Positions 33,756-48,117 of a DNA stretch of 64,000 nt are shown one piece after another. The DNA is taken from contig JAVXNE010000001.1 of the NCBI GenBank assembly GCA_036645935.1, forward strand, positions 384,660 through 448,659, read 5' to 3'. The position numbers were made by a program, and so were the translations under genes. A model generated the notes under the pieces. The model searched no databases and had not been told where the DNA came from. It was given only the letters and a program-made list of their open reading frames with translations. How positions within the stretch are numbered: the stretch's first letter is position 1; each line of letters begins with the position of its first letter. The stretch is from Oscillospiraceae bacterium. GTDB taxonomy: Bacteria > Bacillota > Clostridia > Oscillospirales > Ruminococcaceae.

Positions 33756-33832
33756 TGGTGCGCCAGAAGGGACTCGAACCCCCGACCTACTGGTTCGTAG
33801 CCAGTCACTCTATCCAGCTGAGCTACTGGCGC
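33756..33832 (-). tRNA. tRNA-Arg (anticodon ACG) with an encoded CCA end
   Basis: Minus-strand sequence GCGCCAGTAGCTCAGCTGGATAGAGTGACTGGCTACGAACCAGTAGGTCGGGGGTTCGAGTCCCTTCTGGCGCACCA folds as a cloverleaf with a 7-bp acceptor stem, GGTTCGAGTCC T-arm and anticodon loop CTACGAA. Confidence 0.85.
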
Positions 33833-34022
33833 ACATCGACACCGCTGTGAAACACGCACTCGCGGATACCAATTTGTATCAGCATACGCGCGTCATTCAC
33901 AGGGCGCTCGTACATAATATCACAATGAAAAAAGGCTGTCAATATCGCTGGTCTCTTTATAATGGACTTTGCCGCCGTGTTGCGATATAATTCCAGTTAC
34001 GTAGCAAGGAGGAGGGCGTCTT

Positions 34023-34733
34023 ATGCTGGGCACAATCGTTAATACAGCCGCTGTGGTCGTGGGGGCGGGCATTGGCCTTCTTGTAAAAAAGGGGATAAGC
34101 CGCGAGCTGTCTGATACCTGTATGCGCGTTATGGGGCTCGCAACCTCACTAATAGGTCTCACCAATCTGCTCCCGCTCATGCTGACGTCGGACGGGAGCG
34201 GAAAACTCGTGGCGGGCGGCGGGCTTTTACTGCTTGTCAGTCTCGTCGTCGGGACGACTGTCGGAGAGCTTCTCCGACTTGAAACCTGGGTCGAACGACT
34301 GAGTTTGTTCGCCGAACGCAGATTTAAACTTGATGGGTTCTCAAAGGGATTTGTGACCGCATCTCTGCTGTATTGTGTCGGCGCGATGGCTATAATCGGC
34401 TCTTTCAACGATGGGCTTTACGGCAACCACAGCATACTGTTTGTGAAAAGTGTGATGGATGCGATAAGCGGCTTTTTTCTCGCATCAACACTCGGGGTCG
34501 GCGTGTTGTTTGCAGCGCTGCCCGTGCTGCTCTATCAGGGGGCACTCACACTGGGAGCGGGGTTGATCGCGCCGCTGCTCTCTCAATCGGCAATGGACGA
34601 CATGTGCATGGCTGGCTTCGCGCTAATCATCGTTATCGGTCTCAACATGATGGGCATTACAAAATTCAAAACAACCAACATGCTGCCCTCGATGCTTGTG
34701 ATTTTGCTCGTTCGGCTCATTCCGTGGTTTTAG
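34023..34733 (+). CDS. DUF554-family integral membrane protein (YqgA-like)
   Basis: MLGTIVNTAAVVVGAGIGLL N-terminus characteristic of DUF554; polytopic; AGGAGG SD upstream. Confidence 0.7.
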   Translation: MLGTIVNTAAVVVGAGIGLLVKKGISRELSDTCMRVMGLATSLIGLTNLLPLMLTSDGSGKLVAGGGLLLLVSLVVGTTVGELLRLETWVERLSLFAERRFKLDGFSKGFVTASLLYCVGAMAIIGSFNDGLYGNHSILFVKSVMDAISGFFLASTLGVGVLFAALPVLLYQGALTLGAGLIAPLLSQSAMDDMCMAGFALIIVIGLNMMGITKFKTTNMLPSMLVILLVRLIPWF

Positions 34734-34745
34734 GAGATTCTGCCG

Positions 34746-35551
34746 TGAAAAATAATTTGCGTGCGTGTTACACCCCGACACGCTTCGCGTGTCTCGACGC
34801 ATTTTGGCTCAAGCTGATTGCGGTCATCGCCATGCTGTGCGATCATCTCGGTTATACCGGGCTTGCGAGCGGTGACTGGCTGCGGTTATTCGGTCGTATT
34901 GCCCTTCCTATCTACGCATTTTTACTCGTCGAAGGCTTTTTTAACACACACAATGTATCGCGCTACGCGCTGCGGCTCGCTCTATTTGCGCTGATATCTG
35001 AACTGCCATTCGACTTGATGGCGAGCTCAGGCTCGTCGCTTTTCTGTTGGGACGCGCAAAACGTGTTTTTCACGCTTCTGCTCGGTCTGCTCACGATAGC
35101 TGCACTGGATTATGTGAAGCGCACGTTCTATGATTCTCGACTTGACGCGGACATAAAATCACGCGTGCTGGGCGGTGCTTACGGACTGCTTCTTGCCATC
35201 GCTGCCGTCATTGCAGCCTGCGCACTTGCAACTGTTCTCTACACCGACTATTCATATTACGGAGTGCTGCTGATAGTCAGCTTCTACCTGCTGCGCGGCC
35301 ATCTCCTCCTCATTGCAGCGGCACAGCTTGTGATTTTCTTTCTGCTTATGCCTCACTACACCGTGAGTCTCACCCTTTTCAGCACTACGATGACTGTCGG
35401 GTTCTACGGTTTCGCCGTGTTCTCAATGATTCCGCTCGCCCTCTACAACGGAAAACGAGGGTTGCGCAATCCCGCTCTGCAATACGCATTTTATGCGTTT
35501 TATCCGCTGCATCTGCTCGTTCTCGGGATTATTGTGCGCGCCGTACGCTAA
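34746..35551 (+). CDS. TraX-family membrane protein (GTG start)
   Basis: FWLKLIAVIAMLCDHLGY is the TraX-family signature. An AGGAG SD lies 8 nt before the GTG at 34746. The track ORF at 34373 begins inside the upstream gene. Confidence 0.65.
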
Positions 35552-36089: not shown

Positions 36090-37147
36090 TCAAGATGTGT
36101 CGCAGTGAACGGTGAACGGTGTGTAACGAATCGTTACGTACCTTAACAACTGCTCAAGTGTGCCGTAAATCACGACGCACCTACTCGGCAGCTTCGCATT
36201 CCAATTTTCTTTGAATGATTGCAATCTCGTCATGAAGCCAGTCCGGCAGATCGGCATTTTCTTATTCACTGATAATCCGCTTGCGACGTCCAATCTCCAT
36301 AGGGGGTTCGTCCCCGATACGCAGAAAAATGGGACTGTCAAGGTTTACGGAAACCTCTTTCTTTTCGGTGTCGATGGTCAAAATGCACTTCGTAAAATTG
36401 TTCCTTCCAAAATTAAAGTATCTGCGTTTGCTTTTGGGGTTGGGACTGCCGCTTCTCAAAATTAGCGATAAGCTCCTCACGCAAGGGCGCCCGGATAGAC
36501 TTGACAAAATCCTGATAGGAATTCAGCTCCCGCACAGGGTCGATGTTTTCTCTTGCCGCCTGCTCTGCCTTACAAATGGCTCGTTGATTTTCCGAATGTA
36601 TCCCACCGCTTGGTTGTGCTTTAAAACATCAAGCTGGCTCGGGTACGGTCGCAGATGATTTTCAAAGGCGTTGACCTTGGTATACCATTTGTTGAATAAT
36701 TCTGTAAGAATTTCTTGCTTTTTCTGTGCTTTACTTTTTCTGTGCTTTAAATGTGCCAATGCTTTGAATCTCATTTTGCAGCTCGGTTATCTGCTGGGTT
36801 AAGCGGTGCGCCTGCCTATACAGCCAGGTTGAAATGTGCTTGCGTTCGGTAGATGCTGCCGACTGCACCCGCTCCAATATGGGAAATTGCAGTATTATGT
36901 GATCGTGAAACTTGTCCTGTCACAAAGTCAGTTTGTTGCGGTCACCCATCACCTCCTTTGCGGATAGACGCTTGTCCTTTGTCATCGGCGCAACGCACAG
37001 ATGCATGTGCGGGTTGCGCTCGTCTATGTGTACCGCCGCTGAAAACATCTTTTCCTTGCCTACTTCCTCCTTCGAAAAATCCCATGCGTGTTCAAAATAG
37101 TGACGTGTTTCCTCCCACAAAAACATCCAGTGAACACTGAACTGCAC
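36090..37147 (-). pseudogene. Decayed MobV/Pre-type mobilisation relaxase (four ORF fragments in shifting frames)
   Basis: The N-terminal fragment 36920-37147 has AAVHIDERNPHMHLCVAPM (the HxDE...PHxH relaxase motif) and RLSAKEVMGDRNKLT. Downstream fragments at 36523-36774, 36262-36507 and 36090-36341 continue in other frames. The palindrome ccccaattttgggg at 37150-37163 could be an oriT remnant. Confidence 0.45.
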
Positions 37148-37335: not shown

Positions 37336-38577
37336 ATGGCATATAGCGAGCTGATTAAAAATTTTGACGGCATTCGGGACTATATGCATGAATTCTATGT
37401 GTACGGTTTCAAAAACCGTGAGGAGTTCACAAAGAAGAGCGCCCGCTCTTATGACGACGAACGGCGTCGCATCGAAAGCTGGCTGGGCGATTATATGTGC
37501 TTCCGCCAGACCGCTGATGGCAAAAATGTCTTTCTATCCATCGACAGCCGAATTTCTCACCATAACCCACTCTACAAGGCATGGAAAGCGAAAAGCTTTA
37601 CCGACGGAGACATCACCCTACATTTTCTGATTTTCGATATTTTGTGTAATTCTGATACCGCACTACAGCTAAACAAAATCACGGACGAGATTGACCGGCG
37701 GCTTCTGTGCTTTGACGATCCGAAAACCTTTGATTCCTCCACTGTTCGTAAAAAGCTAAAGGAATACGTAGAGCAGGGGCTTATCTGTATGGAGAGATCC
37801 GGAAAGACGGTAGTGTACCACCGGGCGGAAATGACTAATCCGGACTGCAAAGATGCGCTGGACTTCTTTTCCGAGATCGCACCCTGCGGGGTAATTGGCT
37901 CTTTTTTGCTCGATAAAATCGATACACCTGGGGAGCACTTTGCGTTCAAGCATCACTATATCACCGGGGCGCTGGACAGTGAAATTCAATGCGCATTGTT
38001 TAAGGCAATGCATGGCAAGCAATTTGTTCAAACAGAAACCGTAAACGGACGCAAGAAACTCACCGATGCGCAGAAGATTGTTCCTTTACGCATTTTTATC
38101 AGTGTGCAGAATGGCCGCCAGTACTTGATGGCCTATGTACCCGGTAACAGACGGTTCAGTTCCATCCGGCTTGACAACATTCTGTCGGTTTTTGCGGCGG
38201 AAACTTGCGAAAACTATGATGAATATCGGCAGAAACTTGACCAAATTCAAAAGCATATTTGGGGCGTCAGCACTGAAGGCGGATCTGAGCGTCTGGAGCA
38301 TGTGGAGTTTACTGTGCGGTACCGTGACGGTGAAGAGCATATTCACCGCCGACTTGAACGGGAAAAACGCTGCGGGCAGGTTGAACGAGTTGACAATCAC
38401 ACCGACCGGTTTTTCGCCGACGTCTATGACACAGGCGAGTTGGTGCCGTGGATTCGCACCTTTATCTGCCGAATTGTCAGCATTCATTTTTCAAATCAAG
38501 AGCTGGAAGCACAGTTCAAAAATGATATTGATAAAATGTATCGCCTGTACGGACTGAGCAAAGGCGATGAAACATGA
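37336..38577 (+). CDS. WYL-domain protein with a C-terminal WCX-like extension (PafBC/BrxR-like putative ligand-sensing regulator)
   Basis: Probable wHTH segment (LKEYVEQGLICMERSGKTVVYH); WYL core YLMAYVPGNRRFSSIRLDNI; C-terminal LVPWIRTFICRIVSIH resembling WCX; 413 aa; ATGA overlap with the next gene. Confidence 0.55.
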   Translation: MAYSELIKNFDGIRDYMHEFYVYGFKNREEFTKKSARSYDDERRRIESWLGDYMCFRQTADGKNVFLSIDSRISHHNPLYKAWKAKSFTDGDITLHFLIFDILCNSDTALQLNKITDEIDRRLLCFDDPKTFDSSTVRKKLKEYVEQGLICMERSGKTVVYHRAEMTNPDCKDALDFFSEIAPCGVIGSFLLDKIDTPGEHFAFKHHYITGALDSEIQCALFKAMHGKQFVQTETVNGRKKLTDAQKIVPLRIFISVQNGRQYLMAYVPGNRRFSSIRLDNILSVFAAETCENYDEYRQKLDQIQKHIWGVSTEGGSERLEHVEFTVRYRDGEEHIHRRLEREKRCGQVERVDNHTDRFFADVYDTGELVPWIRTFICRIVSIHFSNQELEAQFKNDIDKMYRLYGLSKGDET

Positions 38578-39485
38578 TTTTCAGCGAGCTTTACAGCGCC
38601 TACTACAACACCGTTGCGGCGATTTTACAGCAAGCGACCCGGCAGCCGGTTACCAAGGAACATCTCCGAACAATTATCGAGAATCGTGCATTTTCGGAAA
38701 GCATTTTATCAATCGATCCTTCGCTCACGAGCGGAAGATGGCAACTGCTGTGGTCGGATGGGACAACACCTCTCAAGTGTCCGCCAACCATGCCGCTTAC
38801 TATTCTGCAAAAGCGCTGGTTAAAAGCGATTTCCCTTGATCCGCGCATTCGACTGTTTGATTTTGATGATTCAAGCCTTGAAGATGTGTCCCCACTGTTC
38901 ACGCCGGACGATATTTATATCTTCGACCGATATACTGACGGAGACCCCTATGAGGATGCAGTATACATACAATACTTCCGTCTGATTTTAGATGCAATCA
39001 AAAACCGCTGTCCCTTGAGCATTGATGTGAAAAATCGTCGGGAGATCCGCACACATCTGACCGTGATGCCGGAATATTTGGAATATTCCGAAAAGGATGA
39101 CAAGTTCCGGCTGGTTACCTCCGGATGTCGGTACGGAAAGGTCGTCAATCTTGGGCGAATCCTATCCTGCAAACCGTTTCAGGGAGATTATTATGGATAT
39201 TTCAAAAAAACCGTCCCCGCAAATAAATTCGTTGTGATCGAGCTGTACGACGCGCGCAACGCGCTGGAACGAGTGCTGCTTCACTTTGCCCACTTCAAAA
39301 AAGAGGCACAGCGGTTGGATGAAAATCACTACCGTATCACGATTAAGTATCAGCAGGACGATGAGACGGAGTTGGTGATCCGGGTCCTTTCCTTTGGCCC
39401 GTTCATCAGGGTGACTGAGCCGGAAAGCTTTGTGGAACTGATCACAAAGCGGCTGGAAATGCAAAAAAGCTGTGAGCTCATTTGA
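38574..39485 (+). CDS. Second WYL/WCX-domain protein (partner of the preceding gene, PafC-like)
   Basis: WYL-like FRLVTSGCRYGKVVNLGRILSC and WCX-like LVIRVLSFGPFIRVTEPESF; 303 aa. Confidence 0.5.
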   Translation: MIFSELYSAYYNTVAAILQQATRQPVTKEHLRTIIENRAFSESILSIDPSLTSGRWQLLWSDGTTPLKCPPTMPLTILQKRWLKAISLDPRIRLFDFDDSSLEDVSPLFTPDDIYIFDRYTDGDPYEDAVYIQYFRLILDAIKNRCPLSIDVKNRREIRTHLTVMPEYLEYSEKDDKFRLVTSGCRYGKVVNLGRILSCKPFQGDYYGYFKKTVPANKFVVIELYDARNALERVLLHFAHFKKEAQRLDENHYRITIKYQQDDETELVIRVLSFGPFIRVTEPESFVELITKRLEMQKSCELI

Positions 39486-39501
39486 GTTCGCAGCTTTTTT
39501 T
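39464..39501 (+). terminator. Rho-independent terminator after the WYL gene pair
   Basis: aaaaaagctg ... cagctttttt stem flanking the stop codon, followed by a T7 run. Confidence 0.5.
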
Positions 39502-39600
39502 CCGTGATAATAGAGGATGAGTTTCGTATTCTATGCTTGCAAGCTGACCTATGCGGGTGTTTGCATCTTCCTTCACCGCGGTGCACAAGGAGCTTCCAAC

Positions 39601-39745
39601 GTGTATGCCGGTTATGCTTTGCACATGGCAATCGCGAAAGCGACGGGGTTCAAATCCCTCTTATCGCAGGTTCGAATCCTGCCTTACATCACGTAATGAT
39701 GTATGCCGGTGGTTTGGCAGCCGCCAAAAGCGACACAAAAAGCAC
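39601..39745 (+). ncRNA. tRNA-like element: two tandem T-arm-like motifs (GGGGTTCAAATCCC and GCAGGTTCGAATCCTGC) flanked by a direct repeat (tgtatgccggt ... aaagcgac). Candidate tRNA-mimic or Y-RNA-like ncRNA, or a tRNA-gene remnant.
   Basis: The GGTTCGAATCC T-loop consensus appears twice in plus sense within a 480-bp ORF-free leader between the WYL terminator and the SPFH-rtcB operon. No full cloverleaf could be folded by eye. Confidence 0.3.
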
Positions 39746-39986
39746 CTTCGGGTACTGATGAAAACCGCATTCGTTATCCGGCAAAGAATGCCCAGGGCAT
39801 AATAACTCGGATGCCAAAAGTATTCCGAGCAATGCATATCCGGCTTTGTCTTGAATCGGATACCGTGCACGGGACCAAAAGACCGTGAAGCCATTCTCCG
39901 TCGATTGGATCCCTGCGCTTAAGATTTCAGCCGCCGAATAGGCATGGATGACGAATCACAACTTTTAACCTGAGGAGGTTTACCAT

Positions 39987-41093
39987 ATGAAAAAGGTTAT
40001 TATCAATGAGAACCAGAAGGGATTTCTGTTCCGGAACGGTCAACTCGTCAAGCTTCTGAATGCAGGAAAATACCATGTGTTTGGGGACAGCGAAATTGAG
40101 CTTGTCTCTCTAAAAGAGCCCTTATCCTCCACAAAATGCGAGCTGGAGACCCTGCTCGCCAACAATGAAATCGCAAAGCACACCTTGGTCTGCGACGTTG
40201 AAGATCAGCAGCTGGCGCTCCATATCGTAAACGGCAATTTTGAAGGAGTGCTGCGCCGTGGCAAATATGCTTTCTGGTCCGTCACTGACCACCACGAATA
40301 TCATCCGGTGGATATTTCAACGCCCGAAGTCGCCCCAGATGTTCCTCTGTACATATTTGCAAAACTGCCCGCCACGCTTTATACGAAGATAGAAGTGGCG
40401 CAGTATCAGAAGGCGCGGCTGTACTTTGATCAGAAGCTTGTTTGCATTCTGGATGCCGGTGTGTATTACTTCTGGAAAAATAATATCCGGATCGATGTCG
40501 GGCTTGTGGATACGAGGCTTACTCAGATGGAGATCACCGGGCAGGAGATCATGACTCAAGACAAGGTCAGCCTTCGCATCAATTTTGTGTGCAATTATCG
40601 CATAACGGATTATGTGAAGATCCTTACCGAGATCGACGACTATTCCGCGCAGATGCACGTTGCAGCACAGCTCGCCCTGCGAGACTTTGTGGGAAAGCAA
40701 AAGCTGGACGACATTCTTGCAAATAAGGATGAGATGTCAAGGTATGTCTTTGACCGGCTCAAAGCAAGAGAAAGTGAGTTCTTTGTGGAAATCACCGACG
40801 CGGGCGTGAAAGATATCATACTGCCCGGTGAGATTCGCGACATCATGAACACAGTGCTGGTGGCAGAAAAGCGCGCACAGGCCAATGTTATTACCCGCCG
40901 AGAGGAGGTCGCTTCCACCCGCTCTTTGCTTAATACCGCCAAGCTGATGGAGGAGAACCAAACTCTTTACAAGCTCAAGGAACTCGAGCATATCGAACAC
41001 ATCTGCGAGAATGTGGGAAACATAAACCTGAACGGAAACGGAGATGTTCTGTCCCAGCTCATGAGCCTGATACATGCGGGTTCACCCTTCTGA
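39987..41093 (+). CDS. SPFH/Band-7 (stomatin/flotillin-like) domain protein with an N-terminal domain of about 180 aa of unknown function
   Basis: SPFH core (QEIMTQDKVSLRINFVCNYRITD ... PGEIRDIMNTVLVAEKRAQANVITRREEVASTRSL); strong GAGGAGG SD. Confidence 0.75.
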   Translation: MKKVIINENQKGFLFRNGQLVKLLNAGKYHVFGDSEIELVSLKEPLSSTKCELETLLANNEIAKHTLVCDVEDQQLALHIVNGNFEGVLRRGKYAFWSVTDHHEYHPVDISTPEVAPDVPLYIFAKLPATLYTKIEVAQYQKARLYFDQKLVCILDAGVYYFWKNNIRIDVGLVDTRLTQMEITGQEIMTQDKVSLRINFVCNYRITDYVKILTEIDDYSAQMHVAAQLALRDFVGKQKLDDILANKDEMSRYVFDRLKARESEFFVEITDAGVKDIILPGEIRDIMNTVLVAEKRAQANVITRREEVASTRSLLNTAKLMEENQTLYKLKELEHIEHICENVGNINLNGNGDVLSQLMSLIHAGSPF

Positions 41094-41154
41094 CCGATGG
41101 CGACGGAACCGCGTCAGTTGTGCGCTCTGCCTCAAATAGAAAGGGAACAAAATT

Positions 41155-42357
41155 ATGATCGAAATAAAAGGGAATTTTAACACTGCGCTATGCTATACAC
41201 CGGAGTTGGAAGAAAAAGCGGCGGAACAGATTCGTACTGTCTGCGATGAGAAAGCCTTCCATGACTGCAAAATCCGCATCATGCCGGACGTTCACGCCGG
41301 CAAAGGCTGCACAATCGGAACGACCATGACTATCACGGATAAGATCGTTCCCGGTATGGTGGGTGTGGACATCGGATGCGGCATGGAAACAGTGAAGATT
41401 GAGCAGTGTGATATTGACTTTGAAAAGCTGGATGAACTGATTCACAAAAGCATCCCCTGCGGTCGTGAGGTGCGGAATGTGCCCCACGAATACAACGCGC
41501 AAATTGACCTGACAGAGCTTCGCTGCGCCCCCTATGTCAGCCTTGAGCGAGCGACAAAAAGCATTGGCACACTGGGCGGAGGCAATCATTTTATCGAGGC
41601 AGATTGCTCCGACGCCGGAGACATTTATATGGTAGTCCATTCCGGCAGCCGTCATTTAGGGATTGAGGTAGCCGATTACTATCAGAAACAGGGACGGCAG
41701 GCTATGTGGGGTGGCGCGCGCTATCAAATTGAGCAGCTTATTGAATCGCTCAAGGCAGAGGGGCGATTCCAAGATATACAACCGGCGGTGACTGCACTCA
41801 AAAATGAGCACAAAATCGATATACCGGGCAATCTGACCTATGTGGAAGGCAAACTGTTCGACGATTATATCCATGATATGCGTATTGTGCAGCGCTTCGC
41901 CATCCTGAACCGCAAGGCGATGATGGATGTTATCCTTTCTGATATGGGATTCACAAAAACAGACGAATTCACGACCATTCACAACTATATCGATACCGAT
42001 GCGATGATCCTCCGCAAAGGCTCAGTTTCTGCAAATAAGGGTGAAACTCTGCTGATTCCAATCAACATGCGTGATGGCAGTCTTATCTGCGTGGGCAGGG
42101 GAAACCCGGAATGGAACTATTCCGCGCCCCACGGCGCAGGGCGGCTCATGAGCCGTAAAGCGGCGTTTTCGTCATTATCCATGGAACAGTACCGGGAAGA
42201 GATGAAAGGCGTTTACTCCACCTGCGTCATGCCGGATACGCTGGATGAATCCCCCATGGCCTATAAGAGCATAGAGGAAATTATCCAGCAGATCGAACCC
42301 ACTGCACAAATTATAGAGCGCATCAAGCCTATTTATAACTTTAAGGCGGCAGAATAA
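41155..42357 (+). CDS. rtcB: RNA 3'-phosphate/2',3'-cyclic-phosphate ligase RtcB
   Basis: Metal-site motifs MPDVHAGKGCTIG, GGGNHFIE, HNYID, PINMRDG and SAPHGAGR (the nucleophilic His lies in SAPHGAGR); 400 aa. Confidence 0.85.
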   Translation: MIEIKGNFNTALCYTPELEEKAAEQIRTVCDEKAFHDCKIRIMPDVHAGKGCTIGTTMTITDKIVPGMVGVDIGCGMETVKIEQCDIDFEKLDELIHKSIPCGREVRNVPHEYNAQIDLTELRCAPYVSLERATKSIGTLGGGNHFIEADCSDAGDIYMVVHSGSRHLGIEVADYYQKQGRQAMWGGARYQIEQLIESLKAEGRFQDIQPAVTALKNEHKIDIPGNLTYVEGKLFDDYIHDMRIVQRFAILNRKAMMDVILSDMGFTKTDEFTTIHNYIDTDAMILRKGSVSANKGETLLIPINMRDGSLICVGRGNPEWNYSAPHGAGRLMSRKAAFSSLSMEQYREEMKGVYSTCVMPDTLDESPMAYKSIEEIIQQIEPTAQIIERIKPIYNFKAAE

Positions 42358-42736
42358 TGGAAATGTTTATTTCGCCCATTCTCACAGCAGAGATAGGCTG
42401 CCTGTAAGAAAGCAATCCCCTGACGATTCTTACCGGTGGCCCGAACTGTCGGGGGGTGATTCACTTGCAAAGGACAAAAACATATTATCGGTGGAGTCGG
42501 AAGCAATCGATCAAACTGAAATTTGGAATTCTGCAAAGGCTAGGCGACGAGAATTATGTATATGCCCGGACGCACAGAGCATATGGGCGTCTTGCCAAAG
42601 GTTAAATTCACTGCTCCTGTCCCATGTTCCGAAGAAAATCTTATGACGACTTTAGCCATAAGGACAAGAAGGCTTTTTTATCCGCTAAGCGGCAAATTGA
42701 CGGCTGGTTTATAAACCGGAAAGGAGAAAATCCCGA

Positions 42737-42886
42737 ATGAAGGAAACAATTCTGAAACAACTATCTCAAGTTGAACAAGCAGAAAATATCCGAATTGTTT
42801 TTGCTGCCGAACCCGGAAGCCGCGCATGGGAATTTACCTCACCGGACAAAACAACCCAAAACGTCCACGGAAGATACGGTCAATGA
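42737..42886 (+). pseudogene. N-terminal fragment of a COG3541-type nucleotidyltransferase, truncated or frameshifted
   Basis: AAGGAGAAAA SD then MKETILKQLSQVEQAENIRIVFAAEPGSRAWEFTSPDK, which matches the ...YACESGSRAWGF nucleotidyltransferase signature. The frame terminates after 49 aa, next to an A8 homopolymer at 42892-42899. Confidence 0.35.
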
Positions 42887-43231: not shown

Positions 43232-43807
43232 TTAATAGTATCGCAAACATCCCACAACACGGCCGAGCACCTGAACGTCATCCGCAATTATAGGTTCAAA
43301 ACTGGGATTCTCCGCATGAAGCTCAACGCGTCCGTTTTTTCGGTAAAGACGCTTCACCGTAGCCTCGTCTCCAATGAGCGCAACGGCAATCTCACCGTCC
43401 TCAACGGTCGGTGTCTGCTTTGCGACTATAATATCTCCGTCTAGGATTCCCGCGTTTATCATACTCTCGCCGCGAACGTGCAACGCAAAGAGATCGCTGT
43501 TGTCCCTGCGGGGACTGTCGAACATTATGTAATCCTCGATATACTGCTGTGCGAGAATGGGCACGCCGGCAGCAACGGTTCCGAGTAAAGGAACAGAAAC
43601 CGCAGACCCGCTCTTGGTGAGCGATATGTTGCGACGTTTGCCCGACGCTATTGAAATCCGTCCCTCATCCTCCAGCTCGTGCAAAAGTTTGTGAACCTGC
43701 GATGTCGATTTAATCGCAAGGGCATCGCACAGCTCTCGCACCGACGGTGGAGATTCAAAGCTGTTCTCGACAAGATAGCGAAAGAGCTTTTCCTTCTTAC
43801 CGCTCAT
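43232..43807 (-). CDS. lexA: LexA repressor (S24 peptidase, SOS regulator)
   Basis: N-terminal LexA DNA-binding domain (PPSVRELCDALAIKSTSQVHKLLHELEDEGRI); S24 Ser-Lys dyad (GESMINAGI ... TVKRL). The ATG at 43807 follows a GGAGGAT SD; the track start at 43843 is an extension. Confidence 0.85.
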   Translation of the reverse strand: MSGKKEKLFRYLVENSFESPPSVRELCDALAIKSTSQVHKLLHELEDEGRISIASGKRRNISLTKSGSAVSVPLLGTVAAGVPILAQQYIEDYIMFDSPRRDNSDLFALHVRGESMINAGILDGDIIVAKQTPTVEDGEIAVALIGDEATVKRLYRKNGRVELHAENPSFEPIIADDVQVLGRVVGCLRYY

Positions 43808-43837
43808 ATAATATCCTCCGCCCTTAGCGTTGGGTTT

Positions 43838-43849
43838 GAACATTTGTTT
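43838..43849. promoter_or_regulatory. Putative LexA (Cheo-type) box GAACATTTGTTT in the lexA promoter
   Basis: GAAC-N4-GTTT, as for clostridial and Bacillus LexA operators. It lies about 30 bp upstream of the lexA start and downstream of a TGgTATTAT extended -10 on the minus strand. Confidence 0.45.
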
Positions 43850-45116: not shown

Positions 45117-46601
45117 TCAAAATCCCTGGTATATGAGCGAGCTGCTCACGGTTCCCGTGACAGATATCATATAGAAGATAATCACGGCGGCACCCATCGT
45201 CCAGTAAAGTGCCCAGCGTGTTTTTTTGCCGAATGTTCCAAGCGGGTTAAAATCAGTCTGCCCCATACGTGTCGGGCGGCTGCTCAAAATATCGAAAATT
45301 ATCGTTAGAACAAGACCGAACACGATCCCGATAAAATAGAACCACATGTATCTGCTGTCGGTAAAAATCCCTTTGGCGGCATATTTTTGCAGCAGTGCGA
45401 CGGTGTCCGCAAAAGGACCGAATTTAAAGAGATTTGAGAATAGATATCCTGCATGTGCAAGGGATGGTGCGCGAAAGAACACCCAGCCGAGCGCGACGAG
45501 AATGTCGCTTATAACTATGCGTGCCACCCTCAACGCGCCGCGCGGCTTTGCAAATCTCTCTCCGAACGCATGCGTGAGCAGCTCGTCGCATATTCGCAAG
45601 ACTCCGTGCCACGCGCCCCAGACCAAAAATGTCACTCCAACGCCGTGCCACAGCCCGCTCACGAGAAACACGAGCAATATGTTGATTAGCTTGCGTGCAA
45701 ATCCCTTGCGGTTGCCCCCTAGCGGGATGTAGACATAGTCGCGAAGCCACGAGGTGAGCGACATATGCCAGCGCGACCAGAAATCAGTGATGCCGGCCGC
45801 GAGATACGGTGCTCTGAAATTCTCGCGCAGCTTGAACCCGAGCATTTCAGCCACCCCGATCGCCATGTCTGTGTATCCCGAAAAATCGCAGTATATCTGA
45901 ATCGCATATGCCGCAACGGCTACGAGCAGTGTCACTCCATCATACTGAGGAAGGTCACTGTAAACCCCGTTCACTATTGAAGCAAGTCCGTCTGCTATCA
46001 CAACTTTTTTAAACGCGCCCCACAGACACCGCTCAAGCCCGCTTACAGCGCGCGAATAACTGAAATCATGCTGCTCGCGAAACTGCGGTATAAGCTCGCC
46101 CGCGCGGTTTATCGGGCCGGATATTATCTGCGGGAAGAAGCTGACGAAGAGTGAGAACGTGACAAAATCCCGCTCGGGGCTCGCGTCACCACGATAGATA
46201 TCAATGAAATATCCGATCAGTTGCAGCGTGTAGAAGCTGATTCCGAGCGGCTGAACGAGCGAGAACCCATTCTCAGGCACCCCAATTCCGAGCGATGCCG
46301 CTACACCGCTCAGCAAATTAAAATATTTGAAGAAAAACAGCGCGCCCAGCAGCACAATTATCGAGAGCGTCAGTCGCCGTTTTTTTGATTTTTCCGTCAC
46401 CGCACCGCCCAGTTTGATCGCGGCAAAATATGCGAAAGCTGTCGTTCCGAGCACAAGCGCTCCGTAATACGGCAGCTTCCACATGTAAAACACATAGCTC
46501 GCTATGAGCAAAAATGGGTTGCGCAGCTTGCGCGGAAGCAGATAATATCCTGCAAGCACAAGGGTGAGAAACAGAATAAACAGCGGGGAGTTAAGAGACA
46601 T
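45117..46601 (-). CDS. MBOAT-family membrane-bound O-acyltransferase (AlgI/DltB/PatA-like), copy 2
   Basis: WSRWHMSLTSWLRDYVYIPLGGNRKG with the MBOAT catalytic His; polytopic. The ATG at 46601 follows a GAGGTGA SD. The central roughly 353 codons are near-identical to the upstream paralogue. Confidence 0.8.
   Translation of the reverse strand: MSLNSPLFILFLTLVLAGYYLLPRKLRNPFLLIASYVFYMWKLPYYGALVLGTTAFAYFAAIKLGGAVTEKSKKRRLTLSIIVLLGALFFFKYFNLLSGVAASLGIGVPENGFSLVQPLGISFYTLQLIGYFIDIYRGDASPERDFVTFSLFVSFFPQIISGPINRAGELIPQFREQHDFSYSRAVSGLERCLWGAFKKVVIADGLASIVNGVYSDLPQYDGVTLLVAVAAYAIQIYCDFSGYTDMAIGVAEMLGFKLRENFRAPYLAAGITDFWSRWHMSLTSWLRDYVYIPLGGNRKGFARKLINILLVFLVSGLWHGVGVTFLVWGAWHGVLRICDELLTHAFGERFAKPRGALRVARIVISDILVALGWVFFRAPSLAHAGYLFSNLFKFGPFADTVALLQKYAAKGIFTDSRYMWFYFIGIVFGLVLTIIFDILSSRPTRMGQTDFNPLGTFGKKTRWALYWTMGAAVIIFYMISVTGTVSSSLIYQGF
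45468..46527. repeat. Direct repeat copy A (1,060 bp), near-identical to 46984-48043
   Basis: Constant offset of 1,516 bp. Identical sub-ORFs appear in the track (45719-45916 versus 47235-47432; 45765-45980 versus 47281-47496). One mismatch was seen (cccGctcac versus cccActcac). Confidence 0.85.
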
Positions 46602-46626
46602 ATTCACCTCATGTTTCGTGAAAAAA

Positions 46627-48117
46627 TTAAAAATTGCCGTATATGAACGACGCGGACAGTGCTCCACGCGACGCGCTGATGATAAAGAAGCACATTACCG
46701 CGAGTGCGAGCGAAATACACAGCGTCCATTTTGTGATTTTGCCAAAATCATACAGCGGATTATAACCATCGCTATCACCCTCGCGCGTTCGTCGCGCGAG
46801 CTTTGCATCAAATATCGCACAAATCACAAGGCCCATCAAAATCAATCCAAAGAAAAGAAGATAGAACACCGTTGCGTTCGCGACATTTTGAGACGCAAGG
46901 TAGGTTATCTGTTCAAGCGCGCCCGAAAAGGAAACGGAATTTAGCATGTTTTTAAAGACATAGAGCGCATCAGGCAGCGAATTTGCGCGAAAGAACACCC
47001 AGCCGAGCGCGACGAGAATGTCGCTTATAACTATGCGTGCCACCCTCAACGCGCCGCGCGGCTTTGCAAATCTCTCTCCGAACGCATGCGTGAGCAGCTC
47101 GTCGCATATTCGCAAGACTCCGTGCCACGCGCCCCAGACCAAAAATGTCACTCCAACGCCGTGCCACAGCCCACTCACGAGAAACACGAGCAATATGTTG
47201 ATTAGCTTGCGTGCAAATCCCTTGCGGTTGCCCCCTAGCGGGATGTAGACATAGTCGCGAAGCCACGAGGTGAGCGACATATGCCAGCGCGACCAGAAAT
47301 CAGTGATGCCGGCCGCGAGATACGGTGCTCTGAAATTCTCGCGCAGCTTGAACCCGAGCATTTCAGCCACCCCGATCGCCATGTCTGTGTATCCCGAAAA
47401 ATCGCAGTATATCTGAATCGCATATGCCGCAACGGCTACGAGCAGTGTCACTCCATCATACTGAGGAAGGTCACTGTAAACCCCGTTCACTATTGAAGCA
47501 AGTCCGTCTGCTATCACAACTTTTTTAAACGCGCCCCACAGACACCGCTCAAGCCCGCTTACAGCGCGCGAATAACTGAAATCATGCTGCTCGCGAAACT
47601 GCGGTATAAGCTCGCCCGCGCGGTTTATCGGGCCGGATATTATCTGCGGGAAGAAGCTGACGAAGAGTGAGAACGTGACAAAATCCCGCTCGGGGCTCGC
47701 GTCACCACGATAGATATCAATGAAATATCCGATCAGTTGCAGCGTGTAGAAGCTGATTCCGAGCGGCTGAACGAGCGAGAACCCATTCTCAGGCACCCCA
47801 ATTCCGAGCGATGCCGCTACACCGCTCAGCAAATTAAAATATTTGAAGAAAAACAGCGCGCCCAGCAGCACAATTATCGAGAGCGTCAGTCGCCGTTTTT
47901 TTGATTTTTCCGTCACCGCACCGCCCAGTTTGATCGCGGCAAAATATGCGAAAGCTGTCGTTCCGAGCACAAGCGCTCCGTAATACGGCAGCTTCCACAT
48001 GTAAAACACATAGCTCGCTATGAGCAAAAATGGGTTGCGCAGCCTTTGGGGTAACACAAAATACACCGTTGCGGCAACTGTCAGGAATATCAAAAACGCA
48101 GGGGTTGAAAATGACAT
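46627..48117 (-). CDS. MBOAT-family membrane-bound O-acyltransferase, copy 1
   Basis: Same MBOAT motifs; unique N-terminus (about 30 aa) and C-terminus (about 100 aa) flank the shared core. Confidence 0.8.
   Translation of the reverse strand: MSFSTPAFLIFLTVAATVYFVLPQRLRNPFLLIASYVFYMWKLPYYGALVLGTTAFAYFAAIKLGGAVTEKSKKRRLTLSIIVLLGALFFFKYFNLLSGVAASLGIGVPENGFSLVQPLGISFYTLQLIGYFIDIYRGDASPERDFVTFSLFVSFFPQIISGPINRAGELIPQFREQHDFSYSRAVSGLERCLWGAFKKVVIADGLASIVNGVYSDLPQYDGVTLLVAVAAYAIQIYCDFSGYTDMAIGVAEMLGFKLRENFRAPYLAAGITDFWSRWHMSLTSWLRDYVYIPLGGNRKGFARKLINILLVFLVSGLWHGVGVTFLVWGAWHGVLRICDELLTHAFGERFAKPRGALRVARIVISDILVALGWVFFRANSLPDALYVFKNMLNSVSFSGALEQITYLASQNVANATVFYLLFFGLILMGLVICAIFDAKLARRTREGDSDGYNPLYDFGKITKWTLCISLALAVMCFFIISASRGALSASFIYGNF
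46984..48043. repeat. Direct repeat copy B (1,060 bp)
   Basis: See copy A. Confidence 0.85.

Follow-up and report, generated by a model that had tools for sequence, protein, structure and literature searches.

The chemistry of the bacterial 3′-phosphate RNA ligase RtcB is well studied; its substrates, and its regulation beyond the RtcR paradigm, are unclear. Here we describe an RtcB locus at positions 37,336–42,357 of a 64,000-nucleotide stretch (the whole of which is called the window) from an Oscillospiraceae bacterium (GenBank assembly GCA_036645935.1, contig JAVXNE010000001.1, positions 384,660–448,659), where two WYL-domain regulator genes precede an operon for a structured RNA, an SPFH/Band-7 protein and RtcB. 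In E. coli, Salmonella and Pseudomonas, the RtcB operon is governed by RtcR, a CARF-domain and sigma-54 activator that senses damaged tRNA ends (PMC7790460), and in P. aeruginosa an SPFH gene (PaFlo8) lies within the rtcR-rtcA-rtcB locus (PMC13086221). The Rsr (Ro60)–Y RNA system, with its rsr-yrlBA-rtcBA operon, places RtcB with a scaffold protein and a cognate RNA carrying a tRNA-like T arm. A further arrangement, RtcB beside a Band-7 protein and a b7a-tRNA, short for “band-7-associated tRNA”, was predicted by Burroughs and Aravind in 2016, as summarised in a 2018 preprint from the Wolin laboratory (10.1101/312249); as of that preprint the RNA was without experimental validation.

The cassette in the window is conserved in gut Clostridia and consists of a regulator pair and an RNA/SPFH/RtcB operon. 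Its features are as follows.

37336–38577, plus strand: WYL1, a regulator of 413 aa (open reading frame list, PADLOC WYL model, Foldseek)
38574–39485, plus strand: WYL2, a predicted WYL-WCX protein of 303 aa (open reading frame list, PADLOC, Foldseek)
39463–39500, plus strand: inverted repeat followed by T7, a terminator and candidate operator (consensus fold, conservation)
39504–39532, plus strand: putative sigma-A promoter (motif conservation)
39538–39960, plus strand: structured leader RNA (Band-7-associated RNA), ~420 nt, non-coding (alignment, consensus fold)
39580–39609, plus strand: hairpin Pa of the leader (covariation)
39645–39682, plus strand: tandem T-arm hairpins (Rfam partial match, covariation)
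39685–39703, then 39704–39719, plus strand: variable hairpin abutting the T arm, then conserved GCCRGYGG-UUGG hairpin (fold and T-arm survey)
39832–39945, plus strand: 3′ domain of the leader RNA, a long irregular hairpin (covariation)
39987–41093, plus strand: SPFH/Band-7 protein, stomatin-type, 368 aa (Pfam, PDB profile search)
41155–42357, plus strand: RtcB 3′-phosphate RNA ligase, 400 aa, short subfamily (Pfam, catalytic motifs)
42737–42886, plus strand: stub of RlaP, the RNA-ligase-associated nucleotidyltransferase, 49 codons (tblastn)

An initial annotation of this DNA, made from its letters alone, had placed the four open reading frames, the terminator, the non-coding leader, a Mob remnant, a nucleotidyltransferase stub and lexA, and all of these positions were confirmed. 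The WYL1 stop and the WYL2 start overlap by 4 nt (ATGA). In the reading that we favour with moderate confidence, a PafBC-like pair would sense damage and switch on the operon, the RNA and the SPFH protein would form a scaffold, and RtcB (with RlaP) would reseal RNA.

The locus resembles the Band-7/b7a-tRNA/RtcB system in its Band-7 protein, in an upstream RNA with tRNA features, in RtcB downstream and in the presence of RlaP in intact relatives. The WYL pair, SPFH and RtcB had been put forward in the initial annotation as a combination not seen described as a unit; the summary of the 2016 work (10.1101/312249) makes clear that the core of SPFH, a tRNA-like RNA and RtcB had already been predicted. 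Compared with the 2016 system, the window differs in its RNA, which is ~420 nt long with at least three covarying modules and no cloverleaf, and in its WYL pair with a conserved operator-promoter region; its RlaP gene is reduced to a stub. Literature searches gave no paper linking WYL to RtcB, Band-7, SPFH or RNA ligases, with the reservation that the 2016 paper itself might mention WYL. Apparently additional to the predicted core are the tight, reciprocal linkage of the WYL pair and RtcB over three operon types, a palindrome with its promoter (both conserved), how large the RNA is and how it folds, and the solubility of the SPFH protein.

The likeness to RtcR-RtcA-RtcB lies in an RtcB operon under a dedicated ligand-binding regulator and, for the Pseudomonas locus, in the SPFH gene. 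The regulator of the window is a predicted winged-helix-WYL-WCX pair and not a CARF and sigma-54 activator, the cassette is without RtcA, and its promoter looks sigma-A-type; no match to RtcR (CARF/sigma-54) or RtcA was found among the open reading frames of the cassette. With the Rsr–Y RNA system the locus shares a scaffold protein and a cognate RNA with a tRNA-like T arm in an RtcB operon, and the window-type WYL pair also precedes operons that encode a DUF2828 protein and have several tRNA-like leader elements; the difference is that the scaffold of the window is a stomatin-like protein. No TROVE/Ro protein or DUF2828-like match was found in the window, nor any Y RNA match in Rfam. DUF2828 is presumably related to Ro/TROVE; comparison of it with PDB and NCBIfam gave no match. 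The DUF2828-type leaders at L084:9153–10066 and L088:9154–9815 (surveyed loci are numbered with an L) contain several tRNA-like units, with D-arm-like GATAGCTCA and T-arm-like GGTTCGACTCC, and these units are reminiscent of YrlA-type Y RNAs.

Gene linkage was observed directly in two neighbourhood surveys. The SPFH-based survey, in which one genome per species was scanned, gave 80 loci from Oscillospiraceae, Lachnospiraceae, Ruminococcus, Acutalibacteraceae, Christensenellaceae, Robinsoniella and Oscillibacter valericigenes, whose strain Sjm18-20 (L031) is a cultured carrier of the system. Gene order is constant in these loci, with a gap of ~500 bp before the SPFH gene; the WYL pair lies upstream in 44 of the 52 Clostridia loci with enough sequence, and RtcB lies downstream in 51/65. 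The WYL1-based survey covered 80 metagenome loci with WYL1 orthologues 59–83% identical. WYL2 follows WYL1 in every locus whose contig covers the position of WYL2, and of the 41 loci that extend at least 4.6 kb downstream, 38 have RtcB there.

Counts of architectures were made on the WYL1 loci with at least 3 kb of downstream sequence. Twelve have the order WYL-WYL-RNA-SPFH-RtcB seen in the window, 23 have a DUF2828 protein in place of SPFH (WYL-WYL-RNA-DUF2828-RtcB), and 14 have no scaffold gene downstream, RtcB in most of these coming directly after WYL2 and being followed by RlaP. DUF2828 and SPFH are found together in two loci. In this third operon type (L111, L133, L147 and others) RtcB-RlaP begin 80–170 nt past WYL2, with neither a scaffold gene nor a long leader. 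As the same pair stands before three operon types, it is RtcB itself to which the pair is linked, the scaffold gene being interchangeable. The left boundary of the cassette is WYL1, since the DNA upstream of it is unconserved (38% identity); the genes flanking the cassette differ in every genome.

The proposal of the initial annotation that the four genes form a conserved unit is therefore upheld, the same order recurring in dozens of genomes. A chance juxtaposition of two unrelated WYL genes with SPFH-RtcB in island DNA, for which the mobile-element remnants beside the cassette are the sole argument, is refuted and retains practically no probability, because genomes of several Clostridia families, with nothing in common in their flanks, repeat the order and spacing.

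Of the three operon types, only the SPFH type has this leader RNA. It is 84% identical at the nucleotide level among six relatives, and its indels of 1, 2, 4 and 7 nt are not multiples of three and are incompatible with coding, which makes it a non-coding sequence; the open reading frames within it are mechanical and unconserved, and gene callers disagree on the small ones. The consensus fold comprises 158 pairs. In profile searches of 79 intergenic regions, its 5′, middle (T-arm) and 3′ modules were found in 51/79, 31/79 and 48/79, respectively. By operon type, the modules occur in 13/13 SPFH-type, 0/29 DUF2828-type and 0/15 RtcB-only operons. This exclusive co-occurrence (13/13 versus 0/44) means that it is the SPFH protein, rather than the regulators or the ligase, that the whole RNA accompanies. 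Neither the window nor 20 loci gave an Rfam match at the gathering threshold, and nothing relevant was found in the leader at E ≤10.

Hairpin Pa pairs GGTGCAC with GTGTATGCC around a small apical hairpin, and all seven of its pairs form in 54–55 of 55 sequences. It holds a conserved GYGTATGCC that is mistakable for a tRNA acceptor strand; this element pairs with GGTGCRC 15 nt upstream in 55/55 sequences, and the pair 39585:39602 is A-T in 29, G-C in 25 and C-G in one. Downstream lie a T-arm-like hairpin, GGGG-TTCAAAT-CCCT (39645–39659), and a canonical T arm, GCAGG-TTCGAAT-CCTGC (39666–39682). The T arm is present in 56/79 loci, with covariation at stem pair 2 (C-G 44, T-A 11) and stem pair 3 (G-C 38, A-T 18). 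A variable-stem hairpin begins at most 4 nt after it in 52 of these 56 loci, the stem sequences being unrelated.

The initial annotation had spoken of a tRNA-like element, and the T arm is indeed real; what exists of a tRNA is this arm alone, within an RNA of ~420 nt that has no cloverleaf. The Rfam tRNA model (RF00005) scores 16.8 bits on the leader, against a threshold of 29, and covers model positions 10–63 only. ARAGORN calls no tRNA in the leader of the window, its only call being a tRNA-Arg at 33756–33832, and in six loci it calls odd tRNAs at the position of the T arm. A cloverleaf with GTGTATG (39602–39608) as the 5′ acceptor strand, paired with CTTACAT after the T arm, was considered and rejected because T and C alternate at its position 2 and the opposite base does not change to match (giving C:A and C:T mismatches), while this position covaries perfectly with its upstream partner in hairpin Pa.

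The 3′ domain is enclosed by a closing helix (39771–39779 with 39946–39954) and has the conserved loops GGATACCG, CTYAA and GCCGCC. Over 24 diverse sequences and 35 pairs, 89.3% of cells are paired, and 30/35 pairs are changed on both sides. The covariation score is 0.578; shuffles give 0.22, with none of 500 attaining the observed score, and sliding the partners gives no more than 0.18. The structure of the RNA is in this sense an observed property, and the covariation-supported fold is fit for addition to RNA family databases.

An RNA that always stands immediately before the SPFH gene at a fixed distance, with no terminator between the two and with a weak hairpin over the ribosome-binding site, could instead be a 5′ untranslated region that works in cis to sense or attenuate SPFH-RtcB expression, perhaps docking a tRNA or a protein through its T-loops, and not a partner in trans. 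We regard this as fairly unlikely. No terminator/antiterminator pair was seen, and the RNA has several domains and a very large size. It is also missing where the same regulators and RtcB lack SPFH, more as expected of a partner specific to that protein than of a sensor serving the operon. The Salmonella Y RNAs are likewise encoded within the rsr-rtcBA operon (10.1101/312249).

The presumed protein partner of the RNA matches Pfam Band_7 over residues 154–307 (E 1.3e-25) and, in a profile search against PDB, stomatin structures over residues 128–345 (E 5e-18). Its N-terminal extension of ~125 aa has weak internal repeats and seems to consist of the first beta-hairpin motif copied twice more. 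The initial annotation pictured a membrane scaffold; this is not borne out, as no transmembrane segment was found (the maximum 19-residue Kyte-Doolittle score is 0.88), and the protein is soluble and stomatin-type. Its gene has a GAGGAGG ribosome-binding site at 39972–39978, and more than 6900 homologues carry the name “slipin family protein”. Two homologues, P0001 and P0002, are 637–638 aa long, with ~60% identity over 98% of the window protein and ~270 extra residues. In a locus without RtcB, the gene next after SPFH (L064:7071–8288) encodes a class-I peptide release factor of full length, with PCRF and RF-1 domains.

RtcB (Pfam E 1.5e-59) starts 61 nt past the SPFH gene. Its motifs MPDVHAGKG, GVDIGCG, GGGNHF, HSGSRHLG and PHGAGR align to those of P. 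horikoshii RtcB, so that the metal-binding Cys, His and Asp residues and the His nucleophile (HGAGR) are kept and the protein is a predicted ligase. At L006:8001–10325, SPFH and RtcB read as one uninterrupted open reading frame of 775 aa, the product of a natural fusion or else of an error in the assembly; if the fusion is genuine, it would be an argument that the two proteins interact physically.

The fragment first described only as a nucleotidyltransferase, and grouped with the island DNA, is real and belongs to the system itself. The stub matches the RlaP of L088 in tblastn (51% identity over 37 aa, E 2e-8) and is preceded by a ribosome-binding site, and RlaP (PF10127) is intact directly after RtcB in the close relatives L094, L090 and L095–L105. 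On this comparison the stub is the decayed fourth gene of the operon. RlaP is reportedly a frequent, but not obligatory, member of the Band-7/b7a-tRNA/RtcB system in the 2016 description by Burroughs and Aravind in Nucleic Acids Research. The enzyme adds 1–2 nucleotides to RNA 3′ ends, and its name is credited to the same authors (2025 preprint, 10.64898/2025.12.29.696909). Between the RtcB stop and the stub of the window lie ~380 nt of unassigned sequence (42358–42736); the intact L094 has only 63 nt there, which implies an insertion or a rearrangement scar in the window. In the close relatives L081:9820–10549 and L090:5169–6370, RtcB is split into two open reading frames. Together with the RlaP stub, the split RtcB genes suggest that the repair genes decay often.

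The identity of the two regulators was established by several routes. WYL1 has a conserved N-terminal region followed by a predicted winged helix (~96–165), a WYL domain (~215–290) and a predicted WCX domain (~320–400). The earlier assignment of WYL domains to both proteins stands through PADLOC, homologues and structure, and that of WCX domains is probable; Pfam, run on both window proteins, found no WYL domain and gave for WYL2 only a sub-threshold WCX match (E 0.0036; 18 bits, where the cut-off is 23.9). WYL1 (E 5.9e-9, residues 221–401) and WYL2 (E 2.2e-7) are both recognised by the WYL model of PADLOC. Many homologues of WYL1 and WYL2 contain PF13280 or PF25583 and are named WYL domain-containing by NCBI; a few pass PF25583 (WCX), and alignment to the WCX region of PafBC gave E 0.18.

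AlphaFold models were built from 40-sequence alignments, with predicted local distance difference test (pLDDT) values of 62 for WYL1 and 79.5 for WYL2. For both, the top Foldseek match is the PafBC–RNA polymerase complex, with best E values of 4e-9 for WYL1 (PafBC 9fnd) and 1.4e-8 for WYL2 (PafBC 9fnd_Y), followed by DriD, BrxR and CapW; the alignments run over the full length of both proteins. WYL1 also matches PafB/PafC in a profile search, and its residues 113–187 resemble ArsR/SmtB winged helices (profile search E 0.02, and Foldseek). The N-terminus of WYL2 is helical in the model. The two families are only weakly alike in sequence (hhalign probability 7%, E 0.005), so that their paralogy rests on the shared fold.

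A PafB/PafC-like regulator pair is a fair description of what these models and sequences suggest. PafBC and DriD are the best structural matches and have the domain order winged helix, WYL, WCX, and PafB and PafC are also two paralogous chains that act together. The overlap of the genes makes WYL2 a likely heterodimer partner of WYL1. The differences are an identity to the window pair of only 10–16%, an extra conserved N-terminal region of ~95 aa in WYL1, and the process under control: PafBC and DriD control DNA-damage regulons and sense single-stranded DNA, whereas the window pair is linked to RtcB RNA-repair operons.

A site at which the pair may act is found at the end of WYL2. The inverted repeat at 39463–39500, AAAAAAGCTGTGAGCTC-ATTT-GAGTTCGCAGCTTTTTT, is near-perfect, forms a 17-bp stem in the consensus fold, is followed by T7 and covers the last WYL2 codons. 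The motif GTTCGCA[AG]C T7 CCGTGAT is almost invariant in SPFH-, DUF2828- and RtcB-only-type operons; it lies ~500 nt before the SPFH start in most WYL-bearing loci and is mostly gone where WYL is absent. In all three operon types CCGTGAT is followed 17–18 nt on by a TAGAAT/TATAAT-like box. In the window the corresponding boxes are a −35-like GTGATA (39504–39509) and, after a 17-nt spacer, a −10-like TATTCT (39527–39532), which would place the transcription start at ~39539, where the conserved RNA begins.

The repeat is the intrinsic terminator of the regulator genes and, since it is unusual for a terminator sequence to be held constant across proteins only 59–80% identical, also the likely operator of the WYL pair. 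We infer that the palindrome is placed upstream of the −35 box in the manner of activator sites. No conservation that could mark an operator was found upstream of WYL1. The 5′ arm (39463–39485) also encodes the C-terminal WYL2 residues QKSCELI, and a constraint on the nucleotides, as much as one on the protein, may lie behind the invariance of Q297, K298 and C300.

These data can be arranged in a simplified scheme for the reading favoured above. The WYL1/WYL2 heterodimer would bind the palindrome at the end of WYL2, just upstream of the putative promoter. By analogy with PafBC, DriD and CapW, all of which are reported to sense single-stranded DNA, the ligand of the WYL domains would be a single-stranded nucleic acid that arises from damage, and the ligand-bound pair would then activate, and not repress, the downstream operon. 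The transcript would begin with the ~420-nt RNA, including its T arm and covarying 3′ hairpin, and continue into SPFH and RtcB; in intact relatives the operon also encodes the presumed end-healing nucleotidyltransferase RlaP. Leader RNA and SPFH protein would form a ribonucleoprotein scaffold, like Ro and Y RNA, on which broken tRNA or rRNA might be offered to RtcB and resealed. The RNA-repair theme of the initial annotation gains from the homology and linkage of RtcB and from RlaP in relatives. Its notion of a WYL sensor in place of the CARF regulator RtcR is consistent with finding the same pair before three kinds of RtcB operon.

The same structural matches allow the opposite polarity. BrxR and CapW, both WYL repressors, are among the best of them, and the pair could be a repressor of this type in an anti-phage or anti-toxin island that is derepressed on infection and reverses ribonuclease damage inflicted by phage or toxin. 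One relative has a HipBA toxin-antitoxin pair on one side and NurA/HerA genes on the other, and in the window a mobile-element remnant adjoins the cassette. We consider this quite improbable. PafBC and DriD, which rank first among the matches, are activators, and the palindrome has the position of an activator site, upstream of the −35 box; PADLOC recognises only its generic WYL model and none of the other proteins, viral contigs gave no relatives, and most genomic contexts are housekeeping.

Several observations weigh against activation by a damage-sensing pair and a scaffold that works in trans. BrxR and CapW are repressors, and the known WYL ligands are single-stranded DNA or c-di-GMP, not RNA. 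The palindrome might be no more than a well-conserved terminator constrained by the overlapping WYL2 codons, and the uninterrupted path from leader to SPFH gene would let the leader act in cis. The WYL pair is not adjacent in 8/52 SPFH loci, which have housekeeping genes upstream, and RtcB is not adjacent in 14/65; the genes found in place of RtcB (downstream) or of the WYL pair (upstream) are housekeeping genes of no relation to the system, and include neither a substitute ligase nor a substitute regulator. The system is also dispensable, as RlaP has decayed here and RtcB is split in some relatives.

Nonetheless, the damage-sensing reading can be extended, tentatively and with less than even confidence, to a joint proposal. 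The WYL heterodimer would be the Clostridia counterpart of RtcR, sensing damaged nucleic-acid ends and driving three interchangeable RtcB operons; the partner of SPFH would be an uncatalogued, multi-domain RNA of ~420 nt that forms a vault-like ribonucleoprotein with a soluble, cage-forming SPFH protein, and not a small tRNA mimic. If the WYL pair does sense RNA damage, WYL signalling would extend from DNA damage and phage defence to RNA repair, and CARF and WYL sensors would be interchangeable before the same enzyme. The locus is a compact and testable system in this respect, with a candidate operator, a candidate promoter and a regulator family with assayable ligands.

The surroundings of the cassette in the window include two features on the opposite strand.

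~36818–37114, minus strand: remnant of a Mob_Pre relaxase (profile match, E 4.8e-23)
43232–43843, minus strand: LexA (Pfam)

The Mob_Pre (MobV-type) remnant corresponds to profile positions 98–194 of 196. Its missing N-terminal half would overlap the WYL1 start, which puts the break in the relaxase gene at the cassette's left edge. The initial annotation read this setting as island cargo linked to phage defence, which the survey does not bear out. Among the other genomes surveyed the Mob remnant had no linkage to the cassette, and LexA matched in only one further locus (L003, 30% identity); both are incidental. Base composition is flat (0.45–0.50 GC), giving no island signal, no SPFH relative was found on viral contigs, and the flanking genes in other genomes are mostly housekeeping. 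A phage-defence role is thus unsupported. Further upstream, 33756–35551 holds tRNA-Arg(acg) (33756–33832, minus strand) followed by genes for DUF554 and TraX, an arrangement that with the relaxase remnant looks like a decayed mobilisable element integrated beside a tRNA gene. To the right of lexA, at 45117–48117 on the minus strand, are two tandem MBOAT-family acyltransferase genes of 516 and 496 aa that overlap by ~40 nt.

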